The notes beneath the pieces were generated by a model, which was not told where the DNA came from, did no database searches, and was given only the letters and a program-made list of their open reading frames with translations. A DNA stretch of 64,000 nt. Origin: an uncultured Christensenella sp. (GTDB lineage: Bacteria; Bacillota; Clostridia; Christensenellales; UBA1242). Where the stretch lies: the NCBI GenBank assembly GCA_964630515.1, contig CAZVVP010000002.1, positions 12,302-76,301 of the forward strand, read 5' to 3'. Shown one piece after another: positions 24,001 to 24,907 of this stretch. Made by a program: the position numbers and the translations under genes. Every line of letters starts with the position of its first letter. Position 1 is the stretch's first letter.

Positions 24001-24907
24001 TAGATTTTTAAAAACTTTAATGAGACTTGATGGAAGTTTTAACAATTTCTATGACTTATATGCAGATATAGATGGTAAATATCAATTTAATGATGGAACT
24101 TTTGATTTATTTGAAGATTTAAATAGTCAAGTTAATGAACAAATTAGCGCAGCATTATCAAATGGTGGCGGCTCTAGTGGTGGAAGTGGAACGGGAAGTT
24201 CAAATACAAATAATGTGACAGGTGATGATGGATTAGCTGGAAGTACTGGAGAGCATGACTCTGGGGAAATGCCATTATATAAACAATATAGTAGTAGTGC
24301 AGCATGCGTTGCGTGTGCTGCAGGTATGATTGCTAGAAAATTAGCAACAACAAATACTGATCATTTTACAACTGATGACTATGTTTCTGGTGTGCCATGG
24401 TTAGCTGCTGCAGATATGACTTTAGGAAACAACCCATGTCAAGAATCTGCTGGGTTGTTTAGACAATGGGTTAATGACGGCTTGTTGACAAGTGGTTCTT
24501 GGAGTGCTTACGGTGCAATAAATGGAATGGCGAGTTATTATGGATTCACACAACAGAGCATGAACGAAACAATTTTTAATTCTTTAAAATCAGGTTCAAT
24601 TAATTCAACAGACTATGCTTTGTTTATTCATTATTTTTATAGTTCATATTCGCTTAATAGTGAACATGGGATTGCTATAGATACTCTAACATTTGATGGG
24701 ACAACTGTTTATGCAAGAATGTATGATTCTGGTAACTTCGGACGTTATACTTTAACCCTTAATAATGTCTCTGACTTTAATAGTTTTAAAGCTAGTTTAG
24801 AAGTGGCAATTGAGGATCAATATGATAGTTATGCTAGCACAAGTTATGACGGAATGAATATAACAAGTATTGATAAGTTAGATTTTTTCTCTAAATACAG
24901 TATTTAA
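2..24907 (+). CDS. Giant repeat-rich extracellular-type protein, 5'-partial (continues upstream of window); GLUG-like beta-helix repeat modules plus C-terminal C39-like cysteine peptidase-like domain
   Basis: Frame 2 has no stop from nt 2 to the TAA at 24905-24907. The TTG at 101 used by the ORF track is only the first start-like codon. 8,301 sense codons are visible. Dozens of [YNF]-[VI]-G-G-[IVLF]-[AVI]-G cores occur (e.g. YVGGIVGY, YIGGIAGF, NVGGLVGR). There is no LPXTG and no hydrophobic C-terminal tail (ends ...DKLDFFSKYSI). Confidence 0.93.
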   Translation, partial: SLSGDSITTKNRNIIISWTQDEIIDSESSTNYGLFGQLSNVELSNINLVINESNIKANTNTSDIYFGGFAGTITNAKLNNCSVFGYINIKQVSDTDTISNLIYIGSLAGKTIDTYVEDVLESSVNDNNLSVKTTILVDASVVKDSKTETVPANVIIGGAVAELTNSSVKDLSVNISVLSENMTYNSMIGGAFGKTNNAEINGVVSYPYLVAKHNVAGLAGEISGTTITASKVYFVNNATSNHTAIKAETNVAGLVLTASNNSTIIYTYVRGFNKKALDLVSNDGYKGDIYLTGTAPIFSAFVINANNLTLKSSYFDANVAFSQTTYAGYDIFFYGITNSTIDYFYAKVLTNVENFKTTETNITHFLDSTPDRDSGYLIINNSQEVYNNIDSADIADGTNAVGSKPWFRNTDTILQNINDGYPMLVNGAKILYDILPDSINITIEDFNHVKYIEYSKNIGWLDSSYTTIEGGETITHNQVIIFYNRNSLGQTNRFVNTYVVGFNGDFDTSDGYKYYNFIDLSLVGDVVDTEFFEKLQAGGSIYLEVINGDNNLIAIDGNIITTKGYGRVTLRAYYSLDASIYNDIEFIIYSGIYNYNVTYTTESSLTNETKLDSKDAILYIDEDANLSVDVINMYNGGYANGNIYFDVVTEMGVRIELEEDDSEFKYNDGNKIVVVSKDGEVRDGEFEDGVIYIPSLTNINIVPTKLPTSGVLKLKVTPYYLVDGRAILVDEISRSFAPKISARASEIIINNNKHTATITANGTQYLELAVTTANVSGDGTTYNINDNEGILVRLSSNVSGNLLGTAVINGFSDFALDTDYRLDNPIVFDTEVFAGSLLKISVYQFKVSKIADTNEYLITYYIALTFNKDEYQRNYSSINMLNADYHIEFVPNTNQNISAQFDCSIALNDPTYIAFDYYANGEKSSSGSFNPQEQESRYISPGRDGLIKLQIFEDFNSADTIELYFDTNYLSYINIKQLVATTSIAFTSDLTYITGYKEISTEYIRDVNDATRIIGVRLSNITSTYGETKFFNNTFYIRLTLNSNVSTNVINLDKNLDINIKVYNVAGEELKVQDTNHSLIVEVLPVASIEIDNTNLTVLQVGDYKKIEWEAYNYDLILDENGNYNVDLTINYANSDLGSYLFIVDNVGLEAYLKLQQNNLTEEEREYYESCLRSFVTEKSETTFTIYSNGVFADYYLICLDTIYDYSTEEDLYNYYMYKDGELETYCYASITMTLTVTKTINGIEEKAEDIVGVQLVPLELKELDLVGATEQSGDIDRFEVLNGTYTQLEFNINDTLDREDVNKYSYDPYVKNADLEDYQYFYYDGQYYTFDESYSETEKYLNRIKAIQANEYALDSDGAEPLDTSENADNVYQLYEELQVGDNFSAIYMPIEKNNRYDYIESGHYNINNASFASANNRFYHIDTKKNLVVDSVSGSSVEVYYFVVSYNYDIKGADGKLEKTISANLVYLLSYNNNNFYYSKDALADINDVTPSPSVSSDEIFNQAKAKEYFQKYLEEDSSLSSYIGQIKDSLSVSIATSLSFTNFLTSVHYDYGYTTDIYDASGKFVESSEHIGYETQINSNGAGLLGGDVKFSINGKSYCIYKQSDPAKDAEESYLYCYARANYLKNNFGDYVVYNNRYIKIDTDKLYVIETFDGGNINNSDAYVEGVKYYIETNNNTYVLLADYTGESLLHYRYKVSDFSVEEKARYLLSGISVYHYEDSEGSDKKKVYDVASVANFYIVTQNGSDTKWEKIELNDLNSKYKNKFLLCRTEESQYRNDTIYYFEYYTIKALGVSDDVKIIAQVNYFYDETGQLRSFYDKNLDGINDIYDSLGDKNYTGESYVGLTPVQYYRDADSMIYERTWKESEAGLGDYAWRKENNCCGHILYTYEYDFNLVIKVNSSYDNPIPIYDEEDFLAMAQGQAQKDGAGNIISTGQHYIMMDNITLKNYSLIDNEGIGNIGSLDGNGYVLTIESFADTRRLRESTLKNFGIFGTISENTIIKNMIINIEPLLVTNKNVATAQATIKNYTTTELIDGYINSNSYINQGVYFDSEENVRVGNASVDLSFLTGINFGILAGENKGSVTNVKIVALTGIKSDTSEVEDNADYNLEVKSDKQYLFVLASEVIDGTFTNNNIGTIVGVNSGIITNSSVGILDYQYNEKITQDDPTTADVDESSVEAELQQADNKIKYLVNKTNIVNGEHDKEYRFIRPYYVTGNGNIAGFVANNIGAISSSFAKGVGVFNTMTDTQSSSNSEATIYTAGFVVNNSGSILNSFAEAYEYGTLDRNAEYIANFVVDTNPDDDIYVYNYDISSIGNISGFVYNNSGEIENAYSVLALTTNANNTAGFVYINSGSVKHAYTTTYCTTISSTGGDSNLAYGTFYQRQDKDYTGTFEDCYYLVDVRKTQSAIDDPATGIDNSFTAHVDVYVDVDGVVAKANYPEFASEESFVNFTFSSDMSVDADSSVWYMTLHGPRLVSTLSTTYSHRQLEGVTTLTDEEDKLSYEFKEYIVKTDLTDGESIRIFIDKTNIFYETATNSGKFTATKVDGTRSAYVYVSYDAETETCQYYLYIDGEGLYLTDNNLTELTLISQEFTEEVYNSLTKYSSLVAMDDKGSILGVLDLLEVPVSDYSNFIFSYTYDPDCQYGSKTNPLLVDTADRFVNYITNFARKTDEGYVFGKVEASEDNKYIRQISHLDFGLKTVDNQSINVLNQEKNGKYLSNVIFNGVYDGNNLNINNLNLTDSRENQTISFGLFNQMGLKTNKDNNFLAVFKNVNLYVVEFTSKDAVSTGTVAGIMYNSAILNVEVSTSLKSNSSNKYQTATYFVGSIAGIAVDTKLIDIEVNNIYLYASLPNEISSDSKNIYNDYLTWQYTATQGTTTNGKYKTFSFDYSNPDMYGNPANPIYDQLDSQLYSISGANKSIKVSTASFAGGIAGVVISSSVVDTSDYYSSANRINPSEATIRGNELSGEYIIAGINAGGLYGYVSENIVMYDVELLTDYDNELGDNQKQAISGNNFVGGIVAENHGLIYKAQVNYSNNNSDEELNQDTFDKDIAEHNYQSKSLVNEDALFANTRKGTNATNTNNTVVAIGGIAGYNADGYIIDSYNKVDVTNDNAYISGGIVGYVGKNTTIKTTFTTANVIAKEVIGGFIGFYNIDGDLTDYQSNLTLEKCVSINLWDKQVEEIQKSIIKGTSFGATSDNIIIRFPEVGNQKVEKATTMEKITVDGTDYNYVKDATSISQNTSNVFLGSLIGFVGLGTNNKIAETSNNVVNYYGVTGEDKTNYEDDIIILNKQRYLVTETITTGSKAWGFDNITSVVSTTYASLSKTTGESVDQIKMAYDSTNALAYDELYVNENNGGLKKWELKTLLSESATEQEATHVELNDGTIIPKTDLEAGQTVKTYYIVQPPAEYDSGSDTTAGNVYIDYNYSKDIFGKKDKDGNNTIKSRQMYLQNILGVYKNIDDTNGSSYTQEEIDKNTSSNLFEEKYYEYEYEDNGDRKATSPLMLDLTFTDSDDDRSIWSMADNGSGSYIPEYITVPDKNYIQINTSEELIEALSNNGTTKTYFLMHNNKSDRKKTNSFNIYINDSAYIYNYAMFNSTFKGNLLGKKYDVDTGIVSDTTINPVINIYTGNSRGVYALINRLENAEIRDIDFNIYVYANDKSSYTNVYASSNGSFGLLATTITASTISNVKFTISGETTSEDIYLNLVHNAEEAGLTSVKNFGLVAGTSINSVYSTITQTISSNIHINSGLTDTIGGVFGYASGNTIKSYDITGAKTLNLHLSESRSNTGNALYFATAIAKNHYNLITTITSNININVDYAESAKSVLQPYGIRFNIFAGGLFGYSLAGEVTNSKYTADNVNFTLDRTSSSAITNSVYFGAISGSTFTNNMENVNASESGSTYNFKLEFLNAFIGGLVGYNDYLSSIISTSYQKSTSNITLAPRGSGRYYVGGIIGYNASNITGDYTIEKVVNTGAISINTDEVLSIEGNNRTMLYVGGIVGYSASGKYSYVANYGNIKTYSEKDKEDTEYTVDQIQERCSNAMYYVGGLVGYARNIGIYNFANYADIYYVIGHGGNYYGGIIGYSTLTNVILNTGKSYCRFYASDTSQENRYNANLFTIAENCVYVSEEDRDNSLTYTDDVYYIQEFYAKYSDLSQSYASSSTYNGTQVYAYADISSFNGKFISESKVPASDLSSSYDTDKLNATGIYHIIDNDEGYNYIYNPTDFTFINWFEEDNVVVAVKGGTSLTNGHSAGIIPSVPANGILSGFKINIGGMAKNEVDDKYEFTPFVKENNGRIFNCIVYGEITEDFGTDGDEEYINSFAMTNNGDIVRSGSVITYTGKFEFEKTYEEYKNVKDLSNNEVGTAYNISSNIKFSGFVYTNSGFISDCYSTVNIDHVNKCDASRDDQISVEGATYNVNAPNFFSYELEMAGLVYLQGERTNANTIGVHNSFHSGKLIDYTTPAVRFYGTNGSLGGTKPDDNNPDDYKPIEYNPGLIVKDTTSGIYSQCGNNLYDNTHVEDLEDGVTNYFNDLDNKTHNIWIKSDDRAKNYYQYYIQDISIGNSDHSLYAPTGIEASFSNNGDNLETSSSFSNKGVVTYSDTSKNGLYYSVAAIEHGTYKLFQSTSTSIIVETARDFARLIGDYNDEDSELNKNVYILADQLDMTGLLGASESGITKLTGQIIGIGDGNLTEAGKMGVLIKNLTINSAFVKTNTGTISGLYFDNINNTGNSCSAIVENNSGTIEYVSVVNSNLLVSNATSSVGLIASTNTGTGTITGIYVSNSSVSVSKESFSDNNGIGGIAGYNNNTGNVSYIYIGKYNATESGLIVNYTDTQNSTKNVGGVIGNNESTFVNNFAIFNVSVNAGNANKVGGVIGCNTGTLESSYFAVTSVQVTGKNYVGGLVGSNIASTITGKIDGSGKYLFLANVDVVANGQYSGIFAGDFITENSVQAQISVIDLIASTLNASSDYAGGVAGYVENTNNDRSSIIIEDTDLYDITITSKGDNTGGIAGYVTGRARGVIVYGIDCEDLEITAEGNNIGGVSGYYENGDIGSLDNGKEVTFNRLIIKGTSRRSQYVGGIVGQAEKVNIYDTTITNSGTSAERNTISTQAIANQIKDNLIDYSNLSEYKSYIGGFIGKSTNSSITNSSINKTNIFANGDYVGGMIGYNDATSATFITSGSDNNILSNVSVVSERLLLGIKNNKDKYTTNNYVGGLIGYDDNNSGEHSLNSTEDTNAIKLSNLTVSGGQYVGGVAGELDTTISKIVSDTYYNSFVLTDISITSDYVDDETKKEGVGYVGGAIGYSSGISIDGIKINKSTNGTGNIITGISYVGGIVGYYDEGNIYNVEVSDATITATGKKKSSGSYIGGIAGYMKDGEIGNEDIGATVQNVIISAYSSYVGGVVGYAKNTDVGAVSEESSSTIRLSNVTISNISDAYVGGVFGKAVDGSGIQNLNVKDIVVTGAGSYVGGLAGETSGDIGSRDSSIILKNVTVTGNGEYVGGVTGKATNNITNILALTLKVNNNNGEYTGGVTGWSKGSIKNIVLVDINIQSYVKNTDPNRKFVDVNLGGIVGYYVPTSDKVIENILITATNESTSRSKILTTVNKGFYIGGIAGFINRESESNVLKNISVQNTDIDTNLSIYVGGVVGFYQASGVAEETSLGNFDGLPDVSSDSEWQKYKSESDEYTIKNVFIKGDSYIGGVLGTIDNHSAQYFLTNVKVYNIDIEAEGSLEIIIDDSLELEGGYIGGIAGFFKTADTNYEDTYSQIYGVEVTGGNGNNASSILVNEAGSYIGGIVGIVDAIATNEDTATNDGGLVNGALNNNRVSVSNITIEAAGQYIGGVAGSATKVAQYYHTGNNTIETNTNELVALINISNVQIFCYNNNIGGVAGDVEYANGTYRSDDLTITNQSGSKVTRIGGLYGMVSGSFMKLDNIANEDSKFIYSNNTNISVSKGTYLGDLASGSSEQVGIGGLVGVLEYISENGMNDNLGGQSFKVYELEMNVSGDHIGGLFGYIYSTNGFSELTTGYLYDSRINVSGDSQFIGGIVGEAKFVNIDGCMINAIEIVVDGVGGHYTGGVAGRVIGNVYNVAVSEWSNGNNVISSTGRYIGGIVGACESGEATDGTEDGGNIGQFMVKAPLIVESTYTGSYTILENGIGRAQVRTYDSYVGGIAGYAEVFGEDNYSTSDYSVVIQRSVSVSARFGCVGGLVGFMNGPFKASADIDGINVNSSYSQVGGIIGYSNDEIDFSKIMIAGTNQYNTISGDNYVGGITGGGLQLTYYDGSLERTIKEDVTSKNYQFMASSKSDALGTCELNETNLATILEEINDFIDPQYEITVGGVSDLKIQTSVIKAYNRLGDFIEDISYKDYDLKDDQLILECLKEKITEEVNADNTIVDKAAEIDNSYNEVKDTSEGKEKGKKQLITRLVDYLTKKNIKTIKFVFEVDSDTTNDGYEDAVVFSYGQEFYSQKHIFNMFASLGDKLKDKITLKNDSQAGVTKGSGLTDWLITYGSKTSDEQNAYIKTIQYVTITKQSTTKINPDNGNDSYITLESLNIEGNDYVGGVLGKSIVSSGLNVDTNGSINNTTVTGRNYVGGVLGSGSATIKATLRWVTVSGNDYVGGAGGYTNNVILSVSKFSEDVEVSGKNYVGGAIGRNESSGTITGILKQSNVTGINYVGGLVGQFKGEDQTLTLGTSHITETIVVGSSYVGGLFGDVIASHVTHGGDGTYLGVYNSTIDGTQPTSDAYTYVGGLFGHVYTKNIYTDNGTLKGDGGLYFSQAEFIHSTVTGISGVGGIVGVMEGNYAVGTSYVIGDEKASYSITGQANVGGVIGALIDKLNKFKVDKVEDDTITGIDEFVQEHYEYELVTDNTYTDTDSVIDSVKDGSYKTKIYGLSDFNSQAYVMDYKIGSLNVNNVGGVIGKINTLNIIGTSANASMSITNVTHTGFNKYALGNGELSIDKKNDTYFYSVPTNMEDTKDDFYIQGNSDVGGLVGRYEYASYINDDSIGYIVYRTIAETMSKAVQDVLVSRYFEGKNDDGSEYTSDPEGQKFANIMNLSSNNLVVIGNNNVGGWIGSTINPQLLIGTNSEESHLYKNNQVQSTGNRIGGMIGYATTLYGTGNIRIGGLSSSFDVNASGQYVGGVIGIAEKINIDSKFNNEANISFNMDINIPNSGSYVGGFAGYLVNSPVDFSINNQFNLCSTINSGDYTGGFIGCADVGSPVRVTTLFYDAHIVGDNYTGGLIGNIVEELTLYFVGKQTNGTFVDVDYSVVDVYGISYVGGIAGHTGNNVNLTGSSGETSVDGEVVATGNNIGGLFGKCSLGNIDGQFDGSNMISVSVDVRASSSEMVGGVIGYAYMCDNIKNFRVYYPGSIMNCPEISGLEGVGGIVGSMFSGKLDNCNNEGIYVTGQNYIGGFVGNASRVEISNCKNQAKDIFGEKYVGGISGNHSYGIIQSSCDNEGKLITGTKYVGGIAGFVNSSDVNVGPEKSQGASNIIKYNGVFNLRFINTAININASAVDGQNNIAEVFGSMSFGDFISKFSESSEIFTNSEKFKEVIADLYNNDTSWEKYVDDIDFTYNEIIADENTEVIQWIITNVFVGNIVGNSIDDPHNDKTAKNVKDLSDRSLKEIFDIEKQNYESEKNEEFSEAIFISSQSGAGVQNVQKTIKVRYHFRLDLVRTTFSGNPNDQRFNARVIDAGVYSDTYNKFVSYSMNTTTDSKWHTYCTNTAGCKHGKSYYKGSDYALYNKGLVLMLLHDCFGNHRISFNDQILGIDPDWGNKNLYDILNNDGSTYSAAKYLDKSRQIVLTVWITDSSGNILEGTKKLRLRVYLPFSYSEYGIVDPKNKKSDEEWTLFGKFDFDYGSGYEDSSAENQTYETYIRKNGANDYHSLYQNRDAFLHQVLKTRFDNQGEKLFNVNTKDFGPFAQISEYGENKLLLIENTKHYTITDSYPQKYTIYYSEEANNLKSDYFGPSEYYRYYLEWNGGETYTKDDPKQDTDVRFLKTLMRLDGSFNNFYDLYADIDGKYQFNDGTFDLFEDLNSQVNEQISAALSNGGGSSGGSGTGSSNTNNVTGDDGLAGSTGEHDSGEMPLYKQYSSSAACVACAAGMIARKLATTNTDHFTTDDYVSGVPWLAAADMTLGNNPCQESAGLFRQWVNDGLLTSGSWSAYGAINGMASYYGFTQQSMNETIFNSLKSGSINSTDYALFIHYFYSSYSLNSEHGIAIDTLTFDGTTVYARMYDSGNFGRYTLTLNNVSDFNSFKASLEVAIEDQYDSYASTSYDGMNITSIDKLDFFSKYSI
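5716..7440 (+). repeat. Protein-level GLUG-like repeat module inside the giant ORF
   Basis: Starts PIPIYDEEDFLAMAQ...HYIMMDNITL...GSLDGNGYVLTIESF. Successive ~25-40 aa units follow: NFGIFGTISENT, NFGILAGENKGSV, NIGTIVGVNSGII, NIAGFVANNIGAI, YTAGFVVNNSGSI, NISGFVYNNSGEI, NTAGFVYINSGSV. Ends SSVWYMTLHGPRLV. The pattern matches my recollection of the GLUG motif family (Pfam PF07581); no search was run. Confidence 0.6.
14390..22440 (+). repeat. Long array of diverged Y-[VI]-G-G-x-x-G beta-helix-type repeats (protein level) inside the giant ORF
   Basis: My hand count is about 60 cores between NGIGGIAGY (about nt 14,396) and KYVGGIAGF (about nt 22,404). Unit length varies (about 25-45 aa). DNA copies are diverged, and I saw no long identical DNA repeats by eye. 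The array is interrupted once, at about 18,836-19,677. Confidence 0.75.
24161..24904 (+). other. Gly/Ser linker plus C-terminal papain-fold (C39-like) cysteine peptidase-like domain of the giant protein
   Basis: Linker SNGGGSSGGSGTGSS, then MPLYKQYSSSAACVACAAGMIARKL (Gln then Cys; Cys codons at 24305 and 24314). Later NSEHGIAIDTLTFDGTTVYARMYDSGN (His, then Asp/Asn). The order Q..C....H....D/N is that of clan CA C39-like peptidases. Confidence 0.5.

Follow-up and report, generated by a model that had tools for sequence, protein, structure and literature searches.

The question raised by this locus is whether a giant bacterial surface fibre carries an enzyme at its extreme C-terminus. The stretch of DNA analysed, referred to below as the window, comprises 64,000 nt of contig CAZVVP010000002.1 from an uncultured Christensenella sp., and it opens with a giant open reading frame (ORF) which runs without a stop codon back to nucleotide 2 and leaves the window; therefore, the encoded protein is at least 8,301 amino acids (aa) long. 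The protein is a GLUG-repeat surface fibre. An earlier interpretation made from the DNA letters (hereafter the sequence-only reading) had proposed that a Gly/Ser linker tethers a papain-fold peptidase domain of the C39-like type (PF03412/PF13529) to its end. Judged by sequence comparison, no described family includes the C-terminal domain. There is a weak resemblance between its Cys and His motifs and those of papain-type proteases (streptopain more than C39), which is no more than suggestive. The reading that we favour, tentatively and at somewhat less than an even chance, is that of a highly divergent thiol hydrolase of the papain type (clan-CA-like), one lying outside every described family. 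The features on which the argument turns are as follows.

2 to 24907, + strand: giant ORF, 5'-incomplete, at least 8,301 aa, stop codon at 24905-24907
24158 to 24268, + strand: flexible tether, SNGGGSSGGSGTGSSNTNN followed by VTGDDGLAGSTGEHDSGE, 37 aa with no Lys or Arg and no aromatic residues
24269 to 24904, + strand: C-terminal domain, aa 8090-8301, 212 aa, predicted helices followed by a predicted beta-meander
24272 to 24286, + strand: PLYKQ, with the candidate oxyanion-hole residue Gln8095, 7 residues upstream of Cys8102
24299 to 24340, + strand: AACVACAAGMIARK, candidate nucleophile helix matching the motif of the streptopain family (C10), Cys8102 at 24305-24307
24659 to 24685, + strand: SEHGIAIDT, with the candidate catalytic His8222 (24665-24667) at the predicted start of a beta-hairpin
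24722 to 24742, + strand: YDSGNFG on the return strand of the hairpin, with Asp8242 or Asn8245 as weak candidates for the His-orienting residue

Translation of 24101-24910 contained all the strings quoted in the sequence-only reading (SNGGGSSGGSGTGSSNTNN, MPLYKQYSSSAACVACAAGMIARKL and NSEHGIAIDTLTFDGTTVYARMYDSGN), and a codon check agreed with its positions for the two cysteines (24305 and 24314). As had been claimed, the C-terminal domain is a separate one and follows a flexible tether; however, the Gly/Ser run begins at 24158 (Ser8053) and not at 24161, and the folded part is 212 aa, since the acidic/Gly segment VTGDDGLAGSTGEHDSGE, consisting of 18 low-complexity residues, prolongs the tether to 24268. 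The tether holds the sole 19-residue window with at least 63% Gly+Ser in the 8,301 aa, and its pLDDT in the predicted model is 26-31. The 212-aa domain is acidic (pI 4.4) and 15% aromatic, its last 157 residues are free of proline, and no paralogue of it occurs within the window. The claimed residue order, namely Gln, Cys, a small-residue helix ending in Met, a His strand and Asp/Asn, is present, with codons starting at 24284 (Gln8095), 24305 (Cys8102), 24314 (Cys8105), 24326 (Met8109), 24665 (His8222), 24725 (Asp8242) and 24734 (Asn8245). Cys8105 is placed one helical turn past the proposed nucleophile, Cys8102.

The locally significant signal comes from the streptopain family. A matrix for the C10 nucleophile region was built over 14 columns (motif tGCVATAxAQiMrY), the query being left out of the building. 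With Cys8102 aligned to the column of the nucleophile, AACVACAAGMIARK scored +13.0 bits against this matrix, a value that was reached by 2 of 147,500 natural background positions, neither of them with a Cys, which corresponds to about 0.003 per domain; genuine C39_2 domains scored 6.6-17.6 bits on the same matrix, with a median of about 12.7. The alignment of the domain to the C10 alignment by hhalign gave a score of 20.6, while shuffled sequences gave 13.7 +/- 2.5 and 1.2% of them scored as high (empirical p about 0.012). None of 145 natural windows reached 20.6, and this score exceeds 7 of the 13 genuine C39_2-to-C10 comparisons. The extended hhalign path is collinear and puts His8222 on streptopain His195 (EHGIAID versus GHAFVID) and D-S-G-N-F-G on N-W-G-W-G-G; the C39_2 chain puts YDSGNFG, weakly, on the D-P of that family. 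For both families, the best collinear paths bring the catalytic His block onto His8222, and the catalytic Cys block onto either Cys8102 or Cys8105. The His site on the C10 matrix (+6.1 bits, 0.12) is not significant alone. As the domain starts 12 residues ahead of the Cys, the upstream W-x-Q-x-x-P-Y-N of streptopain cannot exist in it. At the level of sequence, the match to the C10 nucleophile helix is a local one, found for the motif and not for the whole domain.

For C39_2 (PF13529), a home-made profile of 13 sequences was used, consisting of 3ERV and 12 diverse plasmid-borne domains; the 3ERV search had returned only near-identical proteins of the B. cereus group, and it was the plasmid domains that supplied diversity. 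A scan of viral contigs with the 3ERV family gave nothing. Compared with the consensus Q-x7-9-G-C-[EA]-x-[TSA]-[SA]-L-x-M, the domain has Q-x6-C and a Met at +7 and is without G-C-E and Leu, and the C39_2 nucleophile-motif matrix gave +3.1 bits at the Cys site, a score expected in 66% of domains. Compared with the His strand H-x-V-x-[LI]-x-G-[YF]-[DN], H-G-I-A-I is present and G-Y-D absent (+5.3 bits, p = 0.27). D-S stands at His+20, versus D-P at 14-16 in C39_2, and one real member (L036) also has D-S. Upstream of the Cys, PLYKQ scored +6.3 bits on the 8-column 'VPxisQ' block of C39_2, with a chance of 0.015 over the 8 permitted offsets, and the 11-column Gln block scored +8.8 bits in the chain alignment. 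A two-part C39_2 signature, which was devised post hoc, fits 9 of 13 and 12 of 13 real C39_2 domains; a background of 153,580 aa contains no other joint occurrence of its parts. Local hhalign of the domain against C39_2 gave P 0.18, and BLASTP against 3ERV (E = 65) and SpeB (E = 1.8), global hhalign and unconstrained block chaining were all at chance level.

Searches for relatives of this part of the protein were equally unproductive. No homologue of the last 230 or 248 aa or of the last 802 aa (7500-8301) was found in 5.8 billion protein clusters (word-indexed), exhaustive phmmer against 1.84 billion representatives gave no real one, and none of the C-terminal queries had a homologue in GTDB genomes, JGI metagenomes, IMG/VR, or phage and plasmid records; in all, the last 802 aa have zero relatives among about 15 billion public proteins. 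Two phmmer matches were rejected as tandem-repeat proteins in which many weak stretches had been summed, and so were two metagenome loci, where the pattern EMPLYKQY coincides with the signal-peptide start of a high-GC protein. Four cuts of the domain matched no Pfam family at E<=10, PF03412, PF13529 and C10 (PF01640) included; NCBIfam and PHROGs profiles gave nothing relevant, and a PDB sequence search gave no match. The neighbouring carboxypeptidase gene (see below) has 25 relatives in GTDB, none of them with a related gene upstream.

Two single-sequence AlphaFold2 runs on the domain gave low-confidence models (pLDDT 43.9 and 43.7), and a Foldseek search of the first against the PDB returned noise (best E 0.25, query-normalised TM-scores <=0.20). 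Both models place Cys8102 at the N-terminus of a helix, the first residue of which is 28-29 in the 230-residue query and 10 in the 212-residue query, and His8222 at the start of a hairpin; their secondary-structure order is compatible with a papain-like fold (clan CA). That the helix begins at CVAC in both models also fits a different explanation, in which this motif would serve redox chemistry in the style of thioredoxin or DsbA, or would be one half of a Zn site that also draws on Cys8146 and a His. CVAC (Cys8102 and Cys8105) is the sole CxxC of the giant protein, and 3 of its 45 Cys lie within the last 212 aa. However, no thioredoxin-like or DsbA profile matched. A cis-Pro loop is a hallmark of the thioredoxin fold, and, with no proline after Pro8145, such a loop is impossible in that region; similarly, since there are three Cys only, a classical four-Cys site is impossible. 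We therefore consider a redox or metal site improbable.

Several results weigh against a papain-type enzyme, and some of them bear directly on the C39 assignment. The C39_2 hidden Markov model (HMM), run on the domain without filters, gave -0.6 bits, which was equalled by 31% of shuffles and reached by 59% of the 216-aa windows of the same protein, and a spacing-constrained C39_2 block chain gave z = 1.44 (p = 0.065 against shuffles, 0.18 against natural windows). When eight streptopain-family (C10) sequences were assembled as a positive control, these enzymes scored 3.1-15.5 bits and z 3.4-9.3 on the same C39_2 models; the tests detect C10 clan-mates and thus have power, and the domain fails them. 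The whole-domain tests for C10 were at chance as well (HMM -1.9 bits, chain z = 0.88), and genuine C39_2 domains are also weak on the C10 chain (z 0.9-3.7). The hallmarks that are absent comprise the Gly before the Cys, G-Y-D after the His strand, D-P and N-W-G-W. One Ala-rich helix may match another through composition. Neither the models, which are of low confidence, nor the homologue searches, which found none, show the Cys and His to be juxtaposed or conserved. Moreover, the windows, matrices and family were chosen after the sequence had been seen and the finding itself was pre-selected, so that the raw numbers overstate the significance. Multiplied together, the three motif probabilities give a small raw product; once selection is allowed for, the evidence is not compelling but suggestive, at about the whole-window level.

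With no Pfam match at E<=10, an HMM score below zero and controls that pass where the domain fails, the assignment to C39 or C39_2 (PF03412/PF13529) is not supported; on these scores the domain is less like C39_2 than the streptopain family is. We also observed that the home-made C39_2 and C10 profiles find one another's members (3-15 bits), and that searching the C39_2 profile with a C10 sequence is far more sensitive than the reverse, which makes a handy calibration for few-sequence searches in clan CA.

If the domain is a papain-type hydrolase, it would fold independently, helices first and sheet second, at the end of the 37-residue flexible tether. The nucleophile would be Cys8102, where the first long helix begins; about 120 residues on, His8222 at the start of the beta-hairpin would act as general base, oriented by Asp8242 (or Asn8245) from the paired strand, and Gln8095 would supply the oxyanion hole. 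Cys8105, one turn off, could lock the nucleophile by a reversible disulfide. We estimate the tether at about 13 nm when fully extended, and the enzyme could sweep the space around the fibre end; possible substrates would be peptides from the cell envelope, from a bound surface or from the fibre. In this scheme we infer the fold and the catalysis, as well as the substrate and which end of the fibre points outward. In plasmid records, C39_2 domains are often located at the extreme C-terminus of larger wall-associated proteins, and C39_2 domains are counted as catalytic modules of endolysins. A fuller version of the proposal would make the domain a new single-member papain-type family, combining a streptopain-like helix, a C39-like Gln block and a CxxC redox lock, and leashed terminally to a GLUG fibre of >8,300 aa, the source being a lineage of Clostridia without a sequenced close relative; this version, on balance, we consider rather unlikely. 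A true enzyme here would mean a giant bacterial fibre with a leashed terminal protease, which could explain processing of the fibre, its threading through the wall, or attack on a bound surface, and clan CA would gain a family invisible to current profiles. A domain that is not an enzyme would be nothing unusual, just another orphan module at the end of a giant adhesin.

What lies ahead of the tether, and how the fibre might be held, bears on this choice. Two further features cover that region.

11699 to 22501, + strand: GLUG-motif repeat stalk (YVGGxxG units), Pfam PF07581, four segments
22499 to 24157, + strand: pre-tether region without repeats, aa 7500-8052, an orphan with no Pfam or PHROGs family

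The giant protein is acidic (pI 4.4), rich in N, G, S, T and Y, and contains 45 Cys (0.5%). PF07581 was detected in the four stalk segments, scanned separately, at 21.5-33.6 bits (Pfam gathering cut-off, 20.5), and the repeats are also evident by eye in the translation; beyond GLUG, Pfam scans of the giant protein found zero other domains. It appears to be multi-module, with similar 'start' segments ahead of runs of GLUG-type units, for example at aa ~1920, ~2640, ~3550 and ~4640 (IYDEEDFLAMAQ, LLVDTADRFVNYI, INTSEELIEALS and VETARDFARLIG, respectively). The region of aa ~6300-6540 is a Lys/Glu-rich insert without repeats, and the pre-tether region holds a Cys/His-rich patch, WHTYCTNTAGCKHGKSYYKG ... 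LLHDCFGNH.

Giant surface proteins of Gram-positive bacteria are usually attached by their C-terminus (PMC12863079). No LPXTG-like sortase motif was found within the last 900 aa, no transmembrane segment (the top 19-residue hydropathy in the 8,301 aa is 1.48), and no wall-binding Pfam domain anywhere in the 8,301 aa. The C-terminal domain could then itself be a non-catalytic end-module, that is, a non-covalent envelope anchor or stopper for the fibre C-terminus, or a ligand binder, with a coincidental Cys/His pattern, and the tether would be a flexible wall-spanning segment such as those before the anchors of Gram-positive surface proteins. This is consistent with the failure of peptidase-family profiles to rise above chance over the whole domain, and the neighbouring genes are envelope genes. 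However, the domain resembles no known anchor or binding domain, and its acidity (pI 4.4) differs from the positive charge of the wall-binding ends described in PMC12863079; an anchor also leaves the nucleophile-helix match and the unique CxxC unexplained. Furthermore, the N-terminus of the giant protein lies beyond the window, and an anchor could be situated there. We regard a non-catalytic end-module as the chief rival of the enzyme reading and only slightly less likely than it, a real possibility if still an uncertain one.

The architecture of a stalk with a small terminal domain is also that of polymorphic toxins, a resemblance pointed out by the sequence-only reading, and the DNA downstream of the giant gene bears on it. 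Three features were located there.

25240 to 25286, + strand: 19-bp perfect hairpin followed by a T-run, -19.2 kcal/mol, z = -5.8
25362 to 25556, - strand: 64-aa ORF overlapping the last 112 nt of the gap and the start of the next gene
25474 to 26664, + strand: PBP5-type D-Ala-D-Ala carboxypeptidase with a signal peptide (Peptidase_S11 1.2e-63, and PBP5_C)

On such an explanation a long beta-helical stalk would deliver a small C-terminal Cys/His toxin to the inside of neighbouring cells, as with CdiA-CT or with PAAR/DUF4150 effectors that have papain-like tips. The architecture fits, and CdiA (8SSM, 12AJ) and DUF4150 (9L5U) proteins in the PDB share a C39-type His-strand motif with the C39_2 consensus. 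However, no immunity-type ORF follows, as had already been stated: the 566-nt gap (24908-25473) has only ORFs of 22-47 aa, and then the hairpin. Nor is there a break in composition at the domain boundary, the GC/GC3 of the domain being 0.341/0.212 versus 0.320/0.187 for the whole gene. The missing immunity ORF and this continuity argue against the toxin resemblance; in addition, no pre-toxin domain was recognised, and no homologues with swapped tips occurred in the collections searched. A toxin tip is, in our judgement, very improbable. As an observation on those proteins themselves, the PDB entries 8SSM, 12AJ and 8SSK of CdiA (8SSK being deposited as fimbrial usher protein StbD) and 9L5U of DUF4150 have the motif 'gHwVVvkGtD..GnV.iyDP.kG....eF...W' in common with C39_2, and on the strength of this shared His-strand motif they appear to carry a C39-type tip.

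The hairpin at 25240-25286, which a simple terminator scan overlooked, was matched in stability by none of 200 shuffles and is probably the terminator of the giant gene's transcript. It lies about 335 nt past the stop codon of the giant gene, which implies either a long 3' untranslated region or an unannotated small transcript in 24908-25240. Rfam, run on the window and on the gap 24908-25473, found no family. The carboxypeptidase gene begins 566 nt 3' of the giant gene and is a neighbour only; its membership of the same system is not implied. Between it and plsX stand four + strand ORFs (27049-36349) of 1180, 949, 254 and 628 aa without a Pfam family. The 1180-aa ORF shows a signal-like N-terminus, faint Ig-like matches and, at its C-terminus, a hydrophobic stretch followed by a tail rich in Lys, and the 949-aa ORF has hydrophobic segments at its start. 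They are followed in order by plsX, rnc, smc, ftsY, frr, uppS and cdsA. The window is bacterial chromosome. Its + strand carries all genes of identified function and nearly all ORFs of at least 100 aa. Nearly all 2-kb bins have a positive GC skew, so that the cumulative skew climbs almost throughout, and GC content is about 0.26-0.34; from the strand bias and the skew it follows that the whole window lies on one leading-strand replichore.

The closest relatives of the carboxypeptidase among 185,579 GTDB species genomes (25 loci, L001-L025) are in metagenome-assembled genomes of Clostridia/Lachnospirales type, at 35-46% identity, and belong to Lachnospiraceae, Epulonipiscium (Candidatus), Defluviitaleaceae and Vallitalea; the exact sequence is absent from the public gene index. 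An orphan region of 802 aa next to a carboxypeptidase that is at most 46% identical to anything in GTDB indicates a poorly sampled lineage with no sequenced close relative, and this point is more robust than the enzyme reading.

Compared with streptopain and its relatives (MEROPS C10; SpeB 2UZJ, interpain A 3BBA, PrtT), the domain has A-C-V-A-C-A-A-G-M-I for G-C-V-A-T-A-x-A-Q-I-M, H-G-I-A-I-D for H-A-F-V-I-D, and D-S-G after the hairpin for N-W-G, and in both the Cys stands ahead of the His, with helices first and sheet second. Unlike streptopain, it has a Cys-His spacing of 120 instead of 148, is without W-x-Q-x-x-P-Y-N and N-W-G-W-G-G, and has no prodomain, being placed at the far C-terminus of a GLUG fibre. 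With C39_2 (PF13529; YvpB-like; 3ERV) it shares [V/M]-P-L-x-x-Q shortly upstream of the Cys, a Met at Cys+7, and a His strand followed by a hairpin and then D-[P/S]; the order of secondary structure predicted by the models (one strand, a meander of three strands, a helix and a last strand) would also be the same. The domain differs from C39_2 in being without G-C-E, G-Y-D and D-P, and its hairpin exceeds the longest among the 13 members by 4 residues. In four plasmid loci (L034, L036, L037 and L038), a genuine C39_2 domain lies at the extreme C-terminus of a protein of 415-876 aa, and the repeats before it are, by eye, of wall-binding type (GW/SH3b-like or GWxxxxGxWYYF-type); a terminal C39_2 module is therefore recurrent in Bacillota and Actinomycetota. 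The bacteriocin-processing C39 peptidases of ABC transporters (PF03412) have the same Q...C...H...D order. The spacing C-x6-M of the domain is shared by LagD as well. Unlike the domain, those C39 peptidases are cytoplasmic, N-terminal on transporters, and cleave double-Gly leaders, a wholly different context.

At the level of the whole protein, the nearest parallels are the A. kunkeei Giant1-5 proteins and the serine-rich repeat proteins (SRRPs), which are likewise extracellular, measure 3,000-8,000+ aa and combine small terminal domains with a stalk of repeats (PMC12863079). Giant1-5 end in positively charged SH3b-like wall-binding domains and SRRPs in a C-terminal wall anchor (LPXTG) (PMC12863079), whereas here a Gly/Ser tether carries a terminal helix/sheet domain that is acidic and an orphan. 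The stalk has bona fide GLUG motifs like those of other GLUG proteins (PF07581); the difference is in the last 802 aa, which have no homologue in the collections searched. Apart from this total absence of relatives and the hybrid-looking candidate active site, which are what is unusual, the combination of a stalk, a flexible tether and a small terminal module is a familiar one.

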